A DNA stretch of 64,000 nucleotides from an uncultured Rickettsiales bacterium (GTDB lineage: Bacteria; Pseudomonadota; Alphaproteobacteria; Rickettsiales; SXRF01), in contig CAZNPA010000006.1 in NCBI GenBank assembly GCA_964575095.1, positions 8,361 to 72,360 on the forward strand. The letters are read 5' to 3'. Positions within the stretch are counted from its first letter, which is position 1. Each line of letters starts with the position of its first letter. Both the position numbers and the translations under genes were made by a program. Under the pieces are notes generated by a model, which was given only the letters and a program-made list of their open reading frames with translations, did no database searches and had not been told where the DNA came from. This document shows, one piece after another, positions 10,313 through 60,455 of this stretch.

Positions 10313-10458
10313 AGCTCCCCCTTGAGGGGGGAGCGGGCGAGGCGTTAGCCGAGCCGTGGGGGTGAAGGTTTGCAAACAACTTTGTTGTTTGCAATACCCC
10401 TCACGCTTCGAGCAGCGCCTACGGCTTGCTCTCAGCCGCTCTCCCCCAAGGGGAGAGC
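10313..10458. repeat. Nested-palindrome element, copy 1 (intergenic, after glnA)
   Basis: Terminal hairpins GCTCCCCCTTGAGGGGGGAGC and CTCTCCCCCAAGGGGAGAG flank an inner stem GCCGTGGGGGTGA...CCCCTCACGC. Same architecture as the copies at 16045, 44223, 45574, 56813 and 57987. Confidence 0.85.
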
Positions 10459-15197: not shown

Positions 15198-16334
15198 ATG
15201 GCAAAGAACAAAAAACACTACGCTTTCCACCAGCGGCTTGCCCGCTGGTATGAAGCGAACGGCCGCAAGACATTGCCGTGGCGCACGACGCGCGACCCTT
15301 ACGCCATCTATGTCAGCGAAATCATGCTGCAGCAGACGCAGGTCAAGACCGTGCAGGAGCGCTATTATTTCCAATTCCTGAAGCGTTTCCCGACGTTAGA
15401 AGCTCTGGCGGCGGCAAAACGTCAGGATGTGCTCAAAGCCTGGCAGGGGCTGGGGTATTATAACCGCGCCGTGAATTTGCATGAAGCGGCGAAGCAGATA
15501 ACCGGGATTCGGGATTGGGGATTAGGGATTGGGGAAAGGCAGAAGAGGAATATTCTTCAAACCCGAAGCCCGAACCCCGAATCCTTAATCCCGACTTTAA
15601 TGTCCCTGCCCGGTATCGGCCGCAATACCGCCCATGCCGTGGCCGCGTTTGCCTACCACACGCCGGTGGCGGTGATGGAAGCCAACGTCAAGCGCGTGCT
15701 GTCGCGGATATTTGCGCTAGAAAACCCAACCGCGGATGCATTGTGGGAACATGCGACGGCGCTGCTCGATACCAAGAACCCGTTCGATTACAATCAGGCG
15801 ATGATGGATATCGGCGCGATGGTTTGCACCAAGCGCGCGCCAAGATGCAAAGAGTGCCCGGCGAATGCAATCTGTGCGGGCACGGCATCGCCTGAATCTT
15901 ATCCGGCGGCCAAGATCAAAAAAGCAACGCCGGTGCGAAAGAAGTATATTTTCCTGCTGCGCAATAACGCGGGAGAATATTTCGCCGAGCCGCGGAAGGG
16001 GAAATTCTTGAACGGCATGTATGGCTTTGTTGAAAAAAATATCTGCTCCCCCCTTGAGGGGGAGCGGGCGAGGACAAGCGATAGCGATGTTCGAGCCGTG
16101 GGGGGTAAGGTTTGCGCTTCGCGCAACACCCCTCTCCCTAACCATCTCCCTCAAGGGGAGAGGGAATATTTAGGCGCCATCCGTCAGCAATATTCGCATT
16201 TTACGCTGGAGGCGGAGGTGTATCTTCAAAAAGCGCAAGGCAGCGGCAAGGATTGGCACTCCTTTTCAAAGCTAAAAAAGTTTCCATTCTCTATGGCAGA
16301 ATTAAAAATCTTGAAGTTACTGGAAGCGGCATGA
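15198..16334 (+). CDS. mutY: A/G-specific adenine DNA glycosylase carrying two in-frame palindromic insertions
   Basis: Contains LPWRTTRDPYAIYVSEIMLQQTQV, the HhH motif LPGIGRNTAHAV, the FeS cluster motif CTKRAPRCKECPANAIC and a C-terminal NUDIX-like domain. Confidence 0.9.
   Translation: MAKNKKHYAFHQRLARWYEANGRKTLPWRTTRDPYAIYVSEIMLQQTQVKTVQERYYFQFLKRFPTLEALAAAKRQDVLKAWQGLGYYNRAVNLHEAAKQITGIRDWGLGIGERQKRNILQTRSPNPESLIPTLMSLPGIGRNTAHAVAAFAYHTPVAVMEANVKRVLSRIFALENPTADALWEHATALLDTKNPFDYNQAMMDIGAMVCTKRAPRCKECPANAICAGTASPESYPAAKIKKATPVRKKYIFLLRNNAGEYFAEPRKGKFLNGMYGFVEKNICSPLEGERARTSDSDVRAVGGKVCASRNTPLPNHLPQGEREYLGAIRQQYSHFTLEAEVYLQKAQGSGKDWHSFSKLKKFPFSMAELKILKLLEAA
15502..15594. repeat. Imperfect palindrome with GGGATTN heptad periodicity, inside mutY
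   Basis: CCGGGATTCGGGATTGGGGATTAGGGATTGGGG ... CCCGAAGCCCGAACCCCGAATCCTTAATCCCGA. Translated in-frame it gives GIRDWGLGIGERQKRNILQTRSPNPESL. Confidence 0.75.
16045..16163. repeat. Nested-palindrome element, copy 2 (in-frame inside mutY)
   Basis: GCTCCCCCCTTGAGGGGGAGCGGGCGAG ... GAGCCGTGGGGGGTAAGG ... CTCCCTCAAGGGGAGAG. Read in-frame it gives SPLEGERARTSDSDVRAVGGKVCASRNTPLPNHLPQGER. Confidence 0.85.
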
Positions 16335-39780: not shown

Positions 39781-39827
39781 GTCATCCCTGCGCAAGCGAG
39801 AGTCCAGACCCCGCAACAAGTGCGGGG
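39781..39827. repeat. GTCATCCCTGCG-type repeat fused to a CCCCGC...GCGGGG hairpin
   Basis: GTCATCCCTGCGCAAGCGAG...CCCCGCAACAAGTGCGGGG. The first half belongs to the 24-nt hairpin family. The second hairpin resembles the one at 55357-55375 after lpdA. Confidence 0.65.
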
Positions 39828-44222: not shown

Positions 44223-44330
44223 AGCTCCCCCTTGAGGGGGGAGCAGCTGAGCGCAAGCGTTAGCGCCGCGCGAAGCGTGGGGGTGTTACCCCTCACGGCT
44301 CGCTCTCGCCCGCTCTCCCCCAAGGGGAGA
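44223..44330. repeat. Nested-palindrome element, copy 3 (between macB ATPase and permease ORFs)
   Basis: AGCTCCCCCTTGAGGGGGGAGC ... GCGTGGGGGTGTTACCCCTCACGGC ... CTCTCCCCCAAGGGGAGA. Confidence 0.85.
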
Positions 44331-44338
44331 ACCAAATT

Positions 44339-45573: not shown

Positions 45574-45732
45574 GCTCCCCCTTGAGGGGGGAGCGGGCGA
45601 AAGCAAGCATTGGCGAAGCTTGAGCCGTGGGGGTGTCTCATCGCATAAATAGCCGGGATTTATCACCCCCACCGGATCGTCCGCCTTCGTATAACTCAGG
45701 CATACTCTCCGACTCCCCCCTCAAGGGGGAGT
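45574..45732. repeat. Nested-palindrome element, copy 4 (after permease gene)
   Basis: GCTCCCCCTTGAGGGGGGAGCGGGCGA ... GAGCCGTGGGGGTG ... CACCCCCACCGG ... GACTCCCCCCTCAAGGGGGAGT. Confidence 0.8.
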
Positions 45733-51214: not shown

Positions 51215-51883
51215 ATGCGCAAGTTATACCATACCCCGCTGTCTCCGTTCTGCCGTAAAATACGGATGAGCCTCAAGGAAAAAGGCCTCGATTTTGAGCT
51301 GGTGCAGGAGAACCCGTGGGACAGCAAACTCGACGTGTTCGCGCTCAATCCTGCCGGCGAGATTCCGGTTTTGATCGAGCCGCATGGCTTTTCCGTCTCC
51401 GGCGCCTACGCCATCGACGAATACCTCGAAGAGGCTTATCCGCAATTAAGCCTGATCGGGAAATCGCCCGGCGAGCGCGCCGAGGTGAGGCGTCTGGCCG
51501 GCTGGTTCGACCACAAATTCGATTACGAAGTGACGCAAAATATTTTGTTCGAAAAAGTGTTCAAGCATTACCTGCACGGCGGCGAACCCAACTCGGCGGC
51601 CATCCGCTACGGCAAGCAGCTGATGCTCTATCACCTCGATTACATCGGCCACCTGTCCAGCGAGCGTTATTTTCTGGCCGGTGACACGATTACGCTGGCT
51701 GACATCGCGGCGGCGGCGCATCTTTCGGCGCTCGACTGTCTGGGCGACGTGCCGTGGGAATATAATAAAGCGGCACGCAACTGGTACGCGCTGATGAAAT
51801 CGCGCCCGTCGATGCGCTGCATCCTCGGCGAGCGCGTCCGCGGCGTCAAGCCGCCGGTCTACTACGCCAACCCGGATTTCTAA
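51215..51883 (+). CDS. Glutathione S-transferase
   Basis: 222 aa. N-terminal thioredoxin-like domain (LYHTPLSPFCRKIRM, EIPVL) plus a helical C-terminal domain. Confidence 0.85.
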   Translation: MRKLYHTPLSPFCRKIRMSLKEKGLDFELVQENPWDSKLDVFALNPAGEIPVLIEPHGFSVSGAYAIDEYLEEAYPQLSLIGKSPGERAEVRRLAGWFDHKFDYEVTQNILFEKVFKHYLHGGEPNSAAIRYGKQLMLYHLDYIGHLSSERYFLAGDTITLADIAAAAHLSALDCLGDVPWEYNKAARNWYALMKSRPSMRCILGERVRGVKPPVYYANPDF

Positions 51884-52917
51884 TGAACGCCCAATCGCGA
51901 ATAACCGCCAAAGCCAAAGCCATAGGCTTTGATGCGGTAGGTTTCACTGCGCCGGAAATTTCCGCCGATGCGCAAGCGGGTTTGCAGGAATTCCTCATCA
52001 ACGACCATCACGGCGATATGGCGTGGATGATGGAGAAGGCCGACCGCCGCGGCGATCCGAAGGCGCTGTGGCCGGAGACGAAATCGGTCATCGTCGTCGG
52101 CCATAATTACGGGCCGGATTTCGATCCGATGGAAAAACTGGCAGCGCGGAGTACGGGGAACATTTCCTGCTACGCGCTGAACGAAGATTATCACGACGTC
52201 ATCAAGAAAAAACTGAAAGAGCTGGCGCGCTGGGTGGCAGAAGAATTTGCCTGCGAGGTGAAAGTGTTTGTGGATACAGCGCCGGTAATGGAAAAGACGC
52301 TCGCGGCGGAGGCTGGCCTTGGTTGGCAGGGAAAACACACCTGTTTGGTTTCGAAAGAATTCGGCAGCTGGCTTTTTCTAGGCAGTATATTCACAACCCT
52401 GCCGCTGACTGCTGCCGCACCGGAAACGGATCACTGCGGCACCTGCCGGAAATGCCTCGACATCTGCCCGACCAACGCCTTTACCGCTGAAAGAAAGCTC
52501 GATGCGCGCAAATGCATTTCCTATCTCACCATCGAGCACAAGGGACAAATTCCGCTCGAATTCAGGAAGGCCATCGGCAACCGCATCTATGGCTGCGACG
52601 ATTGTCTGGCCGTGTGCCCGTGGAATAAATTTGCGCAAATTTCTGGCGAGATTTCTTACCATTCGCGTCGGGAATTGCAAAGCCCGCTGCTGCAAGAATT
52701 AGCGCAACTCGACGACACCGCTTTCCGCGCCTTGTTCAGGAAATCGCCGGTCAAGCGCATCGGCCGTGATCGCTTCGTACGCAACGTGCTCATCGCCATC
52801 GGCAACAGCGGTAACGCCTCTTTGCAAGAAACCATTGCACCGCTTGTACGCGATGCTTCGCCGCTGGTGGCCGAGATGGCGACATGGGCGCTGGAGGAGT
52901 TAGTGGCGAGTGGTTAG
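51883..52917 (+). CDS. queG: Epoxyqueuosine reductase
   Basis: Contains CGTCRKCLDICPTNA and GCDDCLAVCPWNKF ferredoxin motifs plus C-terminal HEAT-like repeats. The last 6 codons and the stop lie inside a palindrome. Confidence 0.92.
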   Translation: MNAQSRITAKAKAIGFDAVGFTAPEISADAQAGLQEFLINDHHGDMAWMMEKADRRGDPKALWPETKSVIVVGHNYGPDFDPMEKLAARSTGNISCYALNEDYHDVIKKKLKELARWVAEEFACEVKVFVDTAPVMEKTLAAEAGLGWQGKHTCLVSKEFGSWLFLGSIFTTLPLTAAAPETDHCGTCRKCLDICPTNAFTAERKLDARKCISYLTIEHKGQIPLEFRKAIGNRIYGCDDCLAVCPWNKFAQISGEISYHSRRELQSPLLQELAQLDDTAFRALFRKSPVKRIGRDRFVRNVLIAIGNSGNASLQETIAPLVRDASPLVAEMATWALEELVASG

Positions 52918-52983
52918 TGGTGAGTGACGAGGAAGTATGCTATCTTTCTGACTCATCACTAACCACTCGCCACTATCCACTAA
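52899..52983. repeat. Palindrome with GTGGNGA periodicity bridging queG and grxC
   Basis: GTTAGTGGCGAGTGGTTAGTGGTGAGTGACG ... CTGACTCATCACTAACCACTCGCCACTATCCACTAA. It ends 1 nt before the grxC ATG. Confidence 0.75.
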
Positions 52984-53241
52984 ATGCCCAACATCATCAT
53001 CTACACCAAAGACTACTGCCCCTACTGCGTGAAGGCGAAAAAGCTGCTGGAAAAAAAGCGCGTCGCGTTCACTGAAATCGACATCACGCGCGACGAGCAT
53101 CTGCAAAAAGAGATGGTCGAGAAATCCGGCGGCAGGCGCAGCGTTCCGCAGATTATTATCGGCGGAAAACCCGTCGGCGGCGCCGACGATTTATACGCGC
53201 TGGATGCGGCAGGAAAATTGGATGCGCTGCTGATACAATAA
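52984..53241 (+). CDS. grxC: Glutaredoxin 3
   Basis: 85 aa with YTKDYCPYCVKAK (CPYC), SVPQIIIGG and GGADDL. Confidence 0.95.
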   Translation: MPNIIIYTKDYCPYCVKAKKLLEKKRVAFTEIDITRDEHLQKEMVEKSGGRRSVPQIIIGGKPVGGADDLYALDAAGKLDALLIQ

Positions 53242-56793: not shown

Positions 56794-56812
56794 TAGTAAT
56801 ATTTCTCCTTTT

Positions 56813-56963
56813 AATTCCCCTCTCCCTTTGAAGGGAGAGGGCAGCGAGACTTGGACAATCGAAGATTGTCCTTAGTCGAGCAGGGTGAGGGTTGCACTCT
56901 CTCATTGGCGATGAAGCACAACCCTCTCCCCTGCCCCTCTCCCTTCAAAGGGAGAGGGGAATT
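56813..56963. repeat. Nested-palindrome element, copy 5 (variant, upstream of lpdA)
   Basis: AATTCCCCTCTCCCTTTGAAGGGAGAGGG ... CAGGGTGAGGGTTGC ... CCCTCTCCCTTCAAAGGGAGAGGGGAATT. Confidence 0.8.
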
Positions 56964-57008
56964 TTAAGAACAGCCGATGATGACGATATCGAAATTAGTG
57001 TCGGTCAT
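56964..57008 (-). pseudogene. Orphaned duplicate of the lpdA 5' end (14 codons + stop)
   Basis: Minus strand AAGGAAAGAAAA-ATGACCGACACTAATTTCGATATCGTCATCATCGGCTGTTCTTAA encodes MTDTNFDIVIIGCS*. The real start is ATGACTGACCAGAACTTTGACATCGTTATCATCGGCGGC, encoding MTDQNFDIVIIGG. Confidence 0.7.
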
Positions 57009-57104: not shown

Positions 57105-58406
57105 CTAAATCAACAACAAACTCGGATTCTCGACGTAATGCTTGAAGGCCGCGAGGAACTCCGCGCCGACGGCGCCGTCCACCACGCGGTGGTCGACGGA
57201 GAGCGTCACTTCCATGATATTGCGGATTTCCATTTTGCCGTGGCGCACCACTACTCTCTCACCGCCAGCGCCTACCGCCAAGATGCAGCCCTGCGGCGGG
57301 TTGACGATGGCGCCGAAATGCTTGATGCCGTACATGCCGAGATTCGAGATCGAGAACGTGCCGCCCTGGAATTCTTCCGGCATGAGTTTGTTGGCGCGGG
57401 CGCGCGCCGCCAGGTCTTTCATTTCGTTCGATACCTGTATCACCGTTTTCTGGTCGGCGTTCTTGACGATGGGCGTGATGAGGCCGCCGTCGATGGCAAC
57501 CGCCACCGAAATATCGACGTTGTTATATTGCAAAATCGCTTCGTCGCTCCACGACGCGTTGGCGGCGGGGATTTTCTTCAAAGCCAGCGCCGATGCTTTA
57601 ATAATAAAATCATTCACTGAAAGTTTATAGGCCGGTTTTTTGTCTTTCCCGGCACGCGCTTCGGCGTCGAAATTGATTTCCTTCCTGACGTCGAGCAGCC
57701 TATCCAATTCGCATTCAATGGTCAGGTAAAAATGCGGCACCTGCTGCTTCGATTCGGTCAAGCGCTTGGCGACGATTTTCCTTATATTGCTATTGGGAAT
57801 TTTGGTGAACTCGGTGGGATTCCTGCTCACCTGCCCGCGCCCTGTGCCGCCGGATGCCAGCGCCTTCAGCACGTCGTCTTTCACGATGCGCCCGTGCGGG
57901 CCGCTGCCCTGCACCATGCCAAGCTGCACGCCTTCGCTGGCGGCAACGCGCTTGGCGAGAGGGCTCGCGAAGATGCGCGAACTTACGCTCCCCCCTTGGG
58001 GGGGAGCAGCTGAGAGCAAGTGCTCTTGCGCGCCGCTCGAAGCGTGGGGGGTAGGCTTTGCAACTTTACCCCCCACGGCTTGACCTTCGCTTACGCTTGG
58101 TCTCGCCTGCTCCCCCCCAAGGGGGGAGCGGGGTTTATAACTCGCCAGCGCGCCCTTATCCTCACCCTCTTCGAGAAGCAGCGCGATGACCTCGTTGACC
58201 TTGACGTTCTGTGTTCCCGCCGGGACCATGATCTTGCCGATGGTGCCTTCATCGACCGCTTCGACTTCCATCGTCGCCTTGTCGGTCTCTATTTCGGCGA
58301 TGACCTTGCCGGACTTGATCTGGTCGCCCTCTTTGACATGCCACTTGGCAAGGTTGCCCTCGGTCATGGTCGGTGACAGCGCAGGCATCAGGATTTCAAT
58401 CGGCAT
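57105..58406 (-). CDS. pdhC: Pyruvate dehydrogenase E2 dihydrolipoamide acetyltransferase with an in-frame palindromic insertion in the linker
   Basis: Lipoyl domain (AEIETDKATMEVEA), PSBD (ASPLAKRVAASEGVQLGMVQGSGPHGRIVK) and catalytic domain (DHRVVDGA). Confidence 0.95.
   Translation of the reverse strand: MPIEILMPALSPTMTEGNLAKWHVKEGDQIKSGKVIAEIETDKATMEVEAVDEGTIGKIMVPAGTQNVKVNEVIALLLEEGEDKGALASYKPRSPLGGEQARPSVSEGQAVGGKVAKPTPHASSGAQEHLLSAAPPQGGSVSSRIFASPLAKRVAASEGVQLGMVQGSGPHGRIVKDDVLKALASGGTGRGQVSRNPTEFTKIPNSNIRKIVAKRLTESKQQVPHFYLTIECELDRLLDVRKEINFDAEARAGKDKKPAYKLSVNDFIIKASALALKKIPAANASWSDEAILQYNNVDISVAVAIDGGLITPIVKNADQKTVIQVSNEMKDLAARARANKLMPEEFQGGTFSISNLGMYGIKHFGAIVNPPQGCILAVGAGGERVVVRHGKMEIRNIMEVTLSVDHRVVDGAVGAEFLAAFKHYVENPSLLLI
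57987..58130. repeat. Nested-palindrome element, copy 6 (in-frame inside pdhC)
   Basis: GCTCCCCCCTTGGGGGGGAGC ... GCGTGGGGGGTAGGC ... CCCCCCACGGC ... GCTCCCCCCCAAGGGGGGAGC. On the coding strand it reads SPLGGEQARPSVSEGQAVGGKVAKPTPHASSGAQEHLLSAAPPQGGS. Confidence 0.85.
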
Positions 58407-59472: not shown

Positions 59473-59775
59473 TTACATCCAGTTATGTATATCTTCATAT
59501 AAATCTTTCCATTCCGGGTTCACTTTCTCGATCAATTCAATTTTCCAATCCCGTTTCCAACGCTTCAGGCATTTTTCTCTGTGGATGGCTTGGTCAATGT
59601 AATCAAATGCTTCTACATAAACCAACCGTTTAACGTGATATGTCTTACTGAATCCCTCTATCAATCCTTCTTTATGTTCTACGGCTCTTCTCGGTAAATC
59701 GTTAGTCACTCCAATATAAAGCACCCCGTATTTTTTACTTGCGATAATATAAACATAATATCTGTGTTTTCTCAT
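59473..59775 (-). CDS. GIY-YIG nuclease family protein (small URI-domain type)
   Basis: 100 aa with YYVYIIASKKYGVLYIGVTNDLPRRAVEH and REKCLKRWKR. AT-rich. Flanked by hairpin repeats on both sides. Confidence 0.85.
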   Translation of the reverse strand: MRKHRYYVYIIASKKYGVLYIGVTNDLPRRAVEHKEGLIEGFSKTYHVKRLVYVEAFDYIDQAIHREKCLKRWKRDWKIELIEKVNPEWKDLYEDIHNWM

Positions 59776-59822: not shown

Positions 59823-60104
59823 TTATGGTAAGCACCTAATTACCCATGTATGTACCTGCCGGTAGGAACTATCGGGAAGCAAGGTGGTATGCTCAGATAT
59901 TTTCTTGAATCCATTATGACACCGTTCTAAAGCATCAGTACTCATCGCATTAAGCGCTATGTTTGGGTTATTATTTACCGTATTATCCGTAGCACTGATG
60001 GTGTAAGTATTATTGCTGGTCTTTTCACCAGTAACGATAGGGTCACACCCAGTGACAATGCCAGCCAATATCATTAGCAATGAGATTTTAGTAAAAATTT
60101 TCAT
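59823..60104 (-). CDS. Small lipoprotein, unknown function
   Basis: 93 aa with lipobox AGIVTGC and an Asn/Thr-rich mature part containing 2 Cys. AT-rich. Confidence 0.55.
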   Translation of the reverse strand: MKIFTKISLLMILAGIVTGCDPIVTGEKTSNNTYTISATDNTVNNNPNIALNAMSTDALERCHNGFKKISEHTTLLPDSSYRQVHTWVIRCLP

Positions 60105-60125: not shown

Positions 60126-60455
60126 TTAGATGTTTAGCTCTAATGTTACTCTCGGATGTTCTCTATCTTTCGGTGCCCAATAATTTTTAACTTTGGCATC
60201 AATTTTTTCGCCAGCATCTAAACGCTTTGACAGGTTTTTAGCGGTACTGGCCTTAATAAAACCTATTTGTTTTCTGCCTATTCCAAGCAATCCAAAAAAT
60301 ACGGGAATGGCAAGATAAACCTCGATGGCATTCTCATCAAATTTATTATTCGGATTACGCTCAAGAAATACAGTCATTCCTTCACGGCAGTATCGCTTGA
60401 TAATTTCTGCCCGGTGCTCAAATCCAGTACCTGCAACAATAGCGCTTCGTGACAT
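60126..60455 (-). CDS. Stand-alone HIRAN-domain protein
   Basis: 109 aa. IVAGTGFEHRAEIIKRYCREGMTVFLERNPNNKFDENAIEVY...IGFIKASTAKNLSKRLDAG fits the HIRAN pattern (G..y......l..G..v.L.RePdN.yD.nAi.V....g..iGyi). Confidence 0.7.
   Translation of the reverse strand: MSRSAIVAGTGFEHRAEIIKRYCREGMTVFLERNPNNKFDENAIEVYLAIPVFFGLLGIGRKQIGFIKASTAKNLSKRLDAGEKIDAKVKNYWAPKDREHPRVTLELNI

Follow-up and report, generated by a model that had tools for sequence, protein, structure and literature searches.

A dispersed palindromic repeat as the probable inter-domain linker of a pyruvate dehydrogenase E2 chain in an uncultured Rickettsiales bacterium

Introduction

The native inter-domain linkers of 2-oxo acid dehydrogenase E2 chains are rich in alanine and proline and serve the swinging-arm mechanism. 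Here we describe an E2 chain whose linker is encoded by a palindromic repeat. The gene, pdhC, lies in a 64-kb stretch of DNA from an uncultured Rickettsiales bacterium (contig CAZNPA010000006.1, positions 8,361 to 72,360; hereafter the window) and specifies the dihydrolipoamide acetyltransferase (E2) of pyruvate dehydrogenase. We consider it probable that a non-coding palindromic repeat of about 145 bp colonised the linker between the lipoyl domain and the peripheral-subunit-binding domain (PSBD) of this protein, and that the repeat became the swinging-arm linker.

The repeat copy within the E2 reading frame

The minus-strand pdhC open reading frame (ORF) is open throughout and encodes 433 amino acids, including the peptide YKPRSPLGGEQARPSVSEGQAVGGKVAKPTPHASSGAQEHLLSAAPPQGGSVSSRIFASPLAKR that the original prediction had read from it. 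That prediction held that the frame passes through a palindromic element without a stop and that the element lies in the flexible linker between the lipoyl domain and the PSBD. Both claims are borne out, the former by the uninterrupted ORF and the latter by the Pfam boundaries of the two domains at residues 76 and 145 (Table 1). The 144-nucleotide (nt) copy amounts to exactly 48 codons, and the peptide that it encodes, RSPLGGEQARPSVSEGQAVGGKVAKPTPHASSGAQEHLLSAAPPQGGS, is the whole lipoyl-to-PSBD linker.

The outer arms of the copy are 35 nt long and 91% complementary. When the 171-nt segment that holds the copy (57975-58145) was folded as RNA, its energy reached -112.3 kcal/mol, compared with -67.6 +/- 4.4 kcal/mol for dinucleotide shuffles of the same segment (z = -10.2), and none of 200 shuffles folded as well. 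This hairpin of -112 kcal/mol would simply be unwound in the mRNA by translating ribosomes. The GC content of the element is 67%, against 55.9% for the window. Among the six readings of the copy (orientation by frame) one is stop-free, and it is the one in use; in the opposite orientation, each of the three frames contains at least one stop. We rejected an intrinsic terminator inside pdhC, as the coding strand of the gene showed neither a terminator-like site nor a T-tract.

The linker segment is predicted to be disordered. In an AlphaFold model based on a 119-sequence alignment, residues 93-142 had predicted local distance difference test (pLDDT) values of 36-44 and no secondary structure, compared with 69-86 in the PSBD and up to 93 in the catalytic core. 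A first model, from a 20-sequence alignment, had been too poor (mean pLDDT 53.6). Because the overall mean of the repeated model is also low (65.6), the predicted disorder supports our interpretation rather than proves it. Glycine, serine, alanine and proline together make up 58% of the 48 residues; alanine and proline by themselves account for only about 25% of the segment. The tryptic peptides expected from the sequence of this segment are SPLGGEQAR, PSVSEGQAVGGK and PTPHASSGAQEHLLSAAPPQGGSVSSR.

Rfam returned no match to the element at the gathering score or at E <= 1, BLAST against PLSDB found no plasmid match, and a word-indexed protein search with the 49-residue insert peptide gave no candidate. 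An exhaustive HMMER search of 1.84 billion representatives with a 50-residue insert yielded one weak match to a repeat protein (E = 2.9e-5), but this search was uninformative, probably because the cluster representatives lack the insert. The repeat family appears to be undescribed.

Probable replacement of the native linker at constant length

The original prediction had counted the repeat as 48 extra codons. The number is exact, but the codons are not extra, as orthologous linkers are about as long. The 120 best E2 orthologues among 5.8 billion proteins, with a best overall identity of 79-80%, are 416-444 residues long (one has 581), compared with 433 residues here. From the GED motif to ASPLA we counted 63 residues in the window protein and 47-71 in 119 orthologues, with a median of 53 and with 18% of the values at 63 or above; the range leaves out five values of 23-34 residues that were mis-cuts by the regular expression. 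In the alignment, conservation extends up to EEGEDKxxLxxYKP(K) and begins again from (G)R[VI]FASPLAKR. Over this interval the window protein contains nothing but the element, which spans YKP to (V)SSRIF, and the alignment reveals no remnant of a native Ala/Pro linker. Because the total and linker lengths of the orthologues match those of the E2 with its insert, the element appears to have replaced the native Ala/Pro linker rather than to have lengthened the protein.

The two nearest E2 proteins, P0001 and P0002, have Ala/Pro linkers 66 and 59 residues long; beyond these linkers they are 88% and 86% identical to the window protein. The linker DNA of P0002 (locus L082) contains no palindrome (fold z = -1.3 and -0.6). 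Checked against such repeat-free orthologues, the originally predicted insertion thus holds for sequence, of which they have no equivalent, but is refuted for length, which they match. The mode of replacement is apparently illustrated, before and after the event, by the close relatives P0020 (L179) and P0017 (L178). These proteins are about 98% identical outside the linker; that of P0017 is a 93-nt palindrome, ACGTCATCCTG...CAGGATGACGT, and in the same place P0020 has an Ala/Pro linker of about 66 nt.

A dispersed repeat family

As had been claimed, the element belongs to a palindromic repeat family that is dispersed. The terminal 20-mer of the family occurs 13 times in the window, where 0.01 occurrences are expected, and a pattern combined with a profile recovered five full copies that are 73-91% identical over the arms, none being expected by chance (Table 1). 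The flanks of these copies are AT-rich, with TAA, TTA or ATAT motifs, and inspection by eye found no consistent direct repeat in them.

Table 1. Coordinates in the window of the pdhC gene, its encoded domains, the parts of its repeat copy, and the other full copies of the family
Feature	Position	Strand	Details
pdhC, dihydrolipoamide acetyltransferase (E2) ORF, 433 aa	57105..58406	-	ETDKA and DHRVVDG motifs intact
Lipoyl domain, residues 4-76	58179..58397	-	Pfam PF00364 (Biotin_lipoyl), E = 3.5e-19
Palindromic repeat copy, codons 93-140 of E2	57987..58130	-	best match to family profile, 120 bits
PSBD (E3_binding), residues 145-180	57867..57974	-	Pfam PF02817, E = 4.8e-14
Catalytic acyltransferase domain, residues 199-432	57111..57812	-	Pfam PF00198, E = 1.6e-86
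Outer arm, gene-distal end in + coordinates	57986..58020	.	includes self-complementary terminal hairpin GCTCCCCCCTTGGGGGGGAGC
Outer arm, partner of 57986-58020	58096..58130	.	
Inner arm pair GCGTGGGGGGTA / TACCCCCCACGG and central loop	58030..58090	.	arms 58030-58053, 58067-58090
Family copy, intergenic	10314..10458	+	between stop of glnA-like ORF and terminator-like hairpin
Family copy, in frame in mutY (ORF 15198..16334)	16045..16165	+	right end diverged or hybrid
Family copy (short form), intergenic	44224..44332	-	between ABC ATPase and permease genes
Family copy	45574..45732	+	immediately 3' of permease stop codon

A pattern scan of a metagenome collection yielded 88 loci, and an nhmmer profile built from the five window copies confirmed full-length family members at six loci (L094, L142, L096, L126, L091 and L132), on contigs of 52-56% GC. 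Copies lie in frame, in forward orientation, in the IspD-IspF inter-domain linker (L126) and in a class III aminotransferase (L132), and in reverse orientation in a type III pantothenate kinase (L142) and a class I aminoacyl-tRNA synthetase (L096). With E2 and MutY included, there are six in-gene copies, and S-P-L-x-G-E is the frame of every one, four of them being forward and two reverse. Over 11 full copies the S-P-L frame is open in six in the forward and in six in the reverse orientation, against about 3.5 expected from shuffles; in intergenic copies it is mostly interrupted by one stop. Since a frame of 48 codons has a probability of about 0.3 of being open by chance in DNA this GC-rich, we read the pattern as a likely survivorship of tolerable insertions combined with a preference for the least harmful frame, and not as a conserved ORF.

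The original prediction had argued from the likeness of the MutY and E2 peptides (SPLEGERAR...AVGGKV and SPLGGEQAR...AVGGKV) that one frame of the palindrome stays open in both orientations. The two genes do lie on opposite strands. However, so do their element copies (16045-16112 matches the reverse complement of 58062-58129 at 85%), and both match positions 1-139 of the family profile in the direction of their own gene; they therefore share element orientation and frame. What had been compared was one orientation read twice, and the argument fails. At the level of the family, reverse in-frame use does exist (L142, L096); the E2 copy is closed in reverse, and the intergenic copies are mostly stopped.

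The L096 synthetase ORF, a fragment, reads through three different palindrome-derived segments, FPLGGEQMSASPK..., GDRESGISSGADTRYPIPDS and SSPLEGGGKEGG...LTLPLKGEG, a sign that in-frame repeats have colonised such genomes heavily. The same terminal module as that of the family was also seen in AT-rich contigs of 30-38% GC (L084, L111, L114, L115, L128, L141, L146, L154 and L160). There it forms a GC-rich unit of 70-90 nt consisting of GCTCCCCCCTTGAGGGGGAGCGGGCGA, a variable hairpin with apex AACGGTAGTT, and GAGCCGTGGGGGGT. The variable hairpin keeps its pairing while its sequence changes, and in L115 this is true even of the opposite ends of a single element. Two modules in inverted orientation flank an AT-rich centre of 280-370 nt in L115 and in L154. 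On the contigs carrying this module we saw no transposase and obtained no Rfam match.

Palindromes in the E2 linkers of relatives

For every E2 linker, the best ungapped inverted repeat was scored against 200 codon shuffles. The close clade comprised 13 loci with E2 at least 70% identical, and 74 distant alphaproteobacterial loci served as controls. The best genome-contig matches to the window E2 were metagenome-assembled genomes (MAGs) named 'Rickettsiales bacterium', at 71-74% identity, and most of 80 loci came from distant alphaproteobacteria. None of the 200 shuffles reached the observed score in the window (26), L081 (21), L172 (19), L174 (19), L177 (17), L003 (15), L175 (13) or L004 (12), and one in 200 did so in L001 and L176. 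Linker-spanning palindromes are present in nine of the 13 close loci (L081, L003, L004, L001, L172, L174, L175, L176 and L177); L002 is a weaker relative of L004, and L082, L173 and L083 stand at or near chance.

The palindromes of the close clade represent at least seven sequence types at a near-constant linker length, and, judged by their peptides, 37 of 118 orthologues have a palindromic linker of one of seven types, each of them verified in DNA from at least one locus. They fill the linker from YKPK to just short of R-[VIL]-F, and most follow a common plan, a heptamer array, a purine-rich KKEEKK centre and an inverted heptamer array. Each locus has heptamers of its own, and no second copies of the arms were found within their own loci of 8-21 kb. 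The L081 and L003 E2 linkers are of the GGGATTN-heptamer type, which has a homologue in the window's own mutY, the palindrome at 15503-15594 (nhmmer E = 2.5e-7), so that at least this type is dispersed beyond E2. Except for this type and the CCCTCTCCCC type, the mobility of the orthologue palindromes is unproven.

Linker palindromes were also present in three of the 74 distant loci, L062 (Parvibaculum), L027 (Devosia geojensis) and L073. The L073 linker, in an E2 that is 49% identical, begins with CGCTCCCCCCTTGAGGGGGAGC and folds with z = -5.8; it shares the terminal hairpin of the window family and the same frame, R-S-P-L-E-G-E, although its match to the family is weak (E ~0.006). The linker palindromes of L062 (7181-7345) and L027 (10277-10426) have CCCTCTCCCC...GGGGAGAGGG hairpins, and their peptides read PSPRRGEG and SPPKGEG. 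Each is related to the other, as well as to non-E2 sequences at a Maricaulis locus (L066, 11368-12002). Parvibaculum and Devosia geojensis, both of cultured genera, thus hold independent palindromes in the same E2 linker.

The E2 linker appears to be a recurrent landing place for palindromes across the clade. We think it unlikely that the lipoyl-to-PSBD linker DNA of the clade has been repeatedly turned over by palindromes at constant linker length. Such turnover could be read in two ways: either a functional linker would be maintained by insertion-deletion turnover of selfish DNA, or the RNA or DNA hairpin would itself be selected as a translational pause or processing site.

Origin of the linker and alternative explanations

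We propose that a dispersed repeat with G5/C5 hairpin termini, similar to a MITE (miniature inverted-repeat transposable element) or an RPE (Rickettsia palindromic element), landed in a part of E2 that is almost free of sequence constraint; 'MITE-like' is meant here as a description and not as demonstrated membership. The insertion would have been tolerated because the linker needs length and flexibility but no particular sequence, and of the six readings only the single open one would have survived. After this presumed arrival by transposition, or concomitantly with it, the native linker would have been deleted under a length constraint. The tether would thus have kept a working length, and the element peptide would now be the linker itself, at a length normal for orthologues. 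The resulting E2 is presumably made and active.

Several observations weigh against this scenario. No target-site duplication has been established in the flanks, which are simply AT-rich. A transposase with matching ends did not turn up, none having been sought in a dedicated search. We saw no empty site for this particular copy, so that it is from the alignment that we deduce both that the element was inserted and that the native linker was lost, and that the E2 is expressed is judged from sequence only. Moreover, random deletion would not be expected to erase the native linker completely while leaving the adjoining element whole.

Could the hairpin rather than the peptide be the selected feature? 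It might cause a translation pause during folding or lipoylation of the lipoyl domain, or it might serve the pdhA-pdhB-pdhC-lpd operon as a control point, whether structural or for RNase III. Hairpins would then have been recruited repeatedly at the lipoyl/PSBD boundary, and the encoded peptide would be secondary. This would fit the recurrence of linker-spanning palindromes of at least seven types in nine of 13 close and three of 74 distant loci, each filling the same interval of the linker without a second arm copy within 8-21 kb of flank. Yet P0001, P0002 (L082), L173 and most orthologues with Ala/Pro-type linkers manage without a palindrome (z ~ -1), and the window copy belongs to a dispersed family that is also found in intergenic DNA. 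In addition, the same genomes carry in-frame palindromes in MutY (two), pantothenate kinase, aminotransferase, IspDF and an aminoacyl-tRNA synthetase (three). Because these proteins are unrelated, general permissiveness together with an unconstrained linker suffices as an explanation, and we regard selection for the hairpin as quite unlikely. A purely local origin, in which repeat slippage and template switching perfected quasi-palindromes without any mobile element, would account for the arrangement of heptamer array, KKEEKK and inverted array, for the locus-specific heptamers and for the lack of a second copy nearby. For the window copy such an origin is excluded by the four other copies, whose arms are 75-91% identical, in unrelated places of the 64 kb; further copies of the family reside in other genes of other samples, and the GGGATTN type is dispersed as well, between the L081 and L003 E2 linkers and mutY. 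Growth in place is highly improbable as an explanation, although perfection of quasi-palindromes in situ is a possible, if less likely, contributor to the orthologue cases.

Loss of the segment from the mature product, in the manner of an intron or intein, or decay of pdhC backed by another E2 gene would find its only opening in the fact that 64 kb of the genome are visible, as sequence alone; direct support is lacking. No group I or group II intron or other Rfam family matched the element, and for an intein 48 residues are far too few, the junctions R-S-P ... G-G-S providing neither a nucleophile nor the His-Asn signature. Decay is contradicted by the intact ORF, ETDKA lipoylation site and DHRVVDG active site, by the 86-88% identity to relatives outside the linker, and by the order eno-ftsB-pdhA-pdhB-pdhC-lpd of the operon, which is conserved. 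We thus judge excision or decay to be very unlikely. Least probable of all, to the point of being barely credible, is an artefact of assembly or amplification. Some amplification chemistries are known to make palindromes by chimeric inverted duplication, but here a structured element recurs five times in the window and again in independently assembled metagenomes, and within a conserved gene it is stop-free over exactly 48 codons. The preferred explanation remains colonisation of the linker by a dispersed repeat.

Relation to known repeats and linkers

The Rickettsia palindromic elements comprise RPE-1 to RPE-10 (Ogata et al. 2000, Science 290:347, and 2002, Genome Res 12:808, as summarised in PMC10969869). 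Like them, the family described here is a dispersed, multi-copy palindromic repeat of about 100-150 bp, a large share of whose copies sit in frame, with the ORF intact, in unrelated housekeeping genes. The encoded peptide is likewise tolerated, being outside folded cores, as it is also between IspD and IspF in L126, and both orientations are apparently translated within the family. In this sense the original description of the element as RPE-like in kind was apt. RPEs are AT-rich. The window element, with its 67% GC and G5/C5 hairpin termini, looks unrelated to them on this composition, and its host is not Rickettsia: the window has 55.9% GC, the nearest E2 proteins are those of uncultured MAGs that bear the labels Rickettsiales, Alphaproteobacteria or Pseudomonadota, and no named Rickettsia species is among the named relatives listed. 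Host and composition make membership in the RPEs unlikely. Two further differences are that the window element substitutes for a whole inter-domain linker at unchanged length, as opposed to adding a surface loop, and that its open frame is statistically unremarkable, about 0.3 of such frames in GC-rich DNA being open by chance.

Intragenic bacterial MITEs include ERIC/IRU, Correia/NEMIS, BOX, QMITE1, and the Anabaena elements MITEb and MITEe (PMC10969869). With these the window element shares its small size, the lack of any coding capacity of its own (no transposase ORF), terminal inverted repeats, a long hairpin fold, multiple copies and occasional in-frame fusions. It differs in that no target-site duplication or parent insertion sequence has been identified and in that each of its termini is itself a perfect small hairpin. 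Repetitive extragenic palindromic (REP) sequences and bacterial interspersed mosaic elements (BIMEs) are mobilised by REP-associated tyrosine transposases (RAYTs), and REPs bear GTAG or CGTC tags (PMC3733652). The likeness to REP/BIME lies in GC-rich hairpin units arranged in inverted pairs and in intergenic copies at gene ends. We nevertheless rejected such an assignment: the termini of the window element, GCTCCCCC...GGGGGAGC, have neither tag, the unit of about 145 nt is paired along its whole length whereas a REP has 20-40 nt, and two of the five window copies are intragenic. An intein or self-splicing intron was rejected on the length, junctions and Rfam result given above.

Compared with native E2 linkers, the element peptide occupies the same position and belongs to the same length class, and it shares with them predicted disorder and an abundance of small residues and proline. 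It departs from them in its low alanine and proline content, in its probable origin from a selfish repeat and in coding DNA that is a near-perfect palindrome.

Other palindromes and nearby features

Further palindromes are scattered through the window. The one at 15503-15594 in mutY, built of GGGATTN heptamer arrays and their inverse, is in frame and encodes GIRDWGLGIGERQKRNILQTRSPNPESLIPT, which brings the palindromic inserts of mutY (15198..16334, +) to two, of different kinds. Another family is represented in the lpdA-pdhC spacer by a palindrome of 161 nt (56808-56968); its arms of 34 nt are 94% complementary, its termini are CCCCTCTCCCTTTGAAGGGAGAGGG, and it shows a weak relationship (E = 5e-5) to the right end of the mutY family copy. 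At 52874-53002, arms of 52 nt that are 73% complementary contain heptamers of the GTTAGTG/GCGAGTG type, and a queG-like ORF (51883..52917) takes its final ~14 codons and its stop from the left arm.

The short hairpin repeat GTCATYCCNGCGAAAGCNGGRATC, one frame of which reads VIPAKAGI, has seven copies in the window (at 39781, 57024, 57082, 59413, 59441, 59784 and 60483). One copy overlaps the pdhC stop codon, and others stand on either side of a group made up of a GIY-YIG nuclease gene and two small ORFs between pdhA and pdhB (59473..59775, 59823..60104 and 60126..60455). The pdh operon of relatives is also interrupted, by HepT/MNT, PIN/Phd and HicAB toxin-antitoxin modules and by SnoaL-like genes (L081, L172-L178).

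Conclusion

In-frame 'protein-coding palindromes' were earlier described as a peculiarity of Rickettsia. That an unrelated-looking, GC-rich family behaves alike in an uncultured alphaproteobacterium of 56% GC and in its relatives suggests that the phenomenon is wider than this genus. In-frame repeats of the RPE or MITE type are known; what is informative here is the probable replacement of a functional inter-domain linker at constant length. The repeat would not be a decoration but a functional part of the enzyme, the tether of the swinging arm in an essential complex, at its normal length. Inserts of this kind can cause errors when E2 and other housekeeping genes of metagenome-assembled genomes are annotated or aligned. 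The E2 linker offers a natural experiment on how little sequence a flexible linker may need and on how selfish DNA may provide raw material for proteins.

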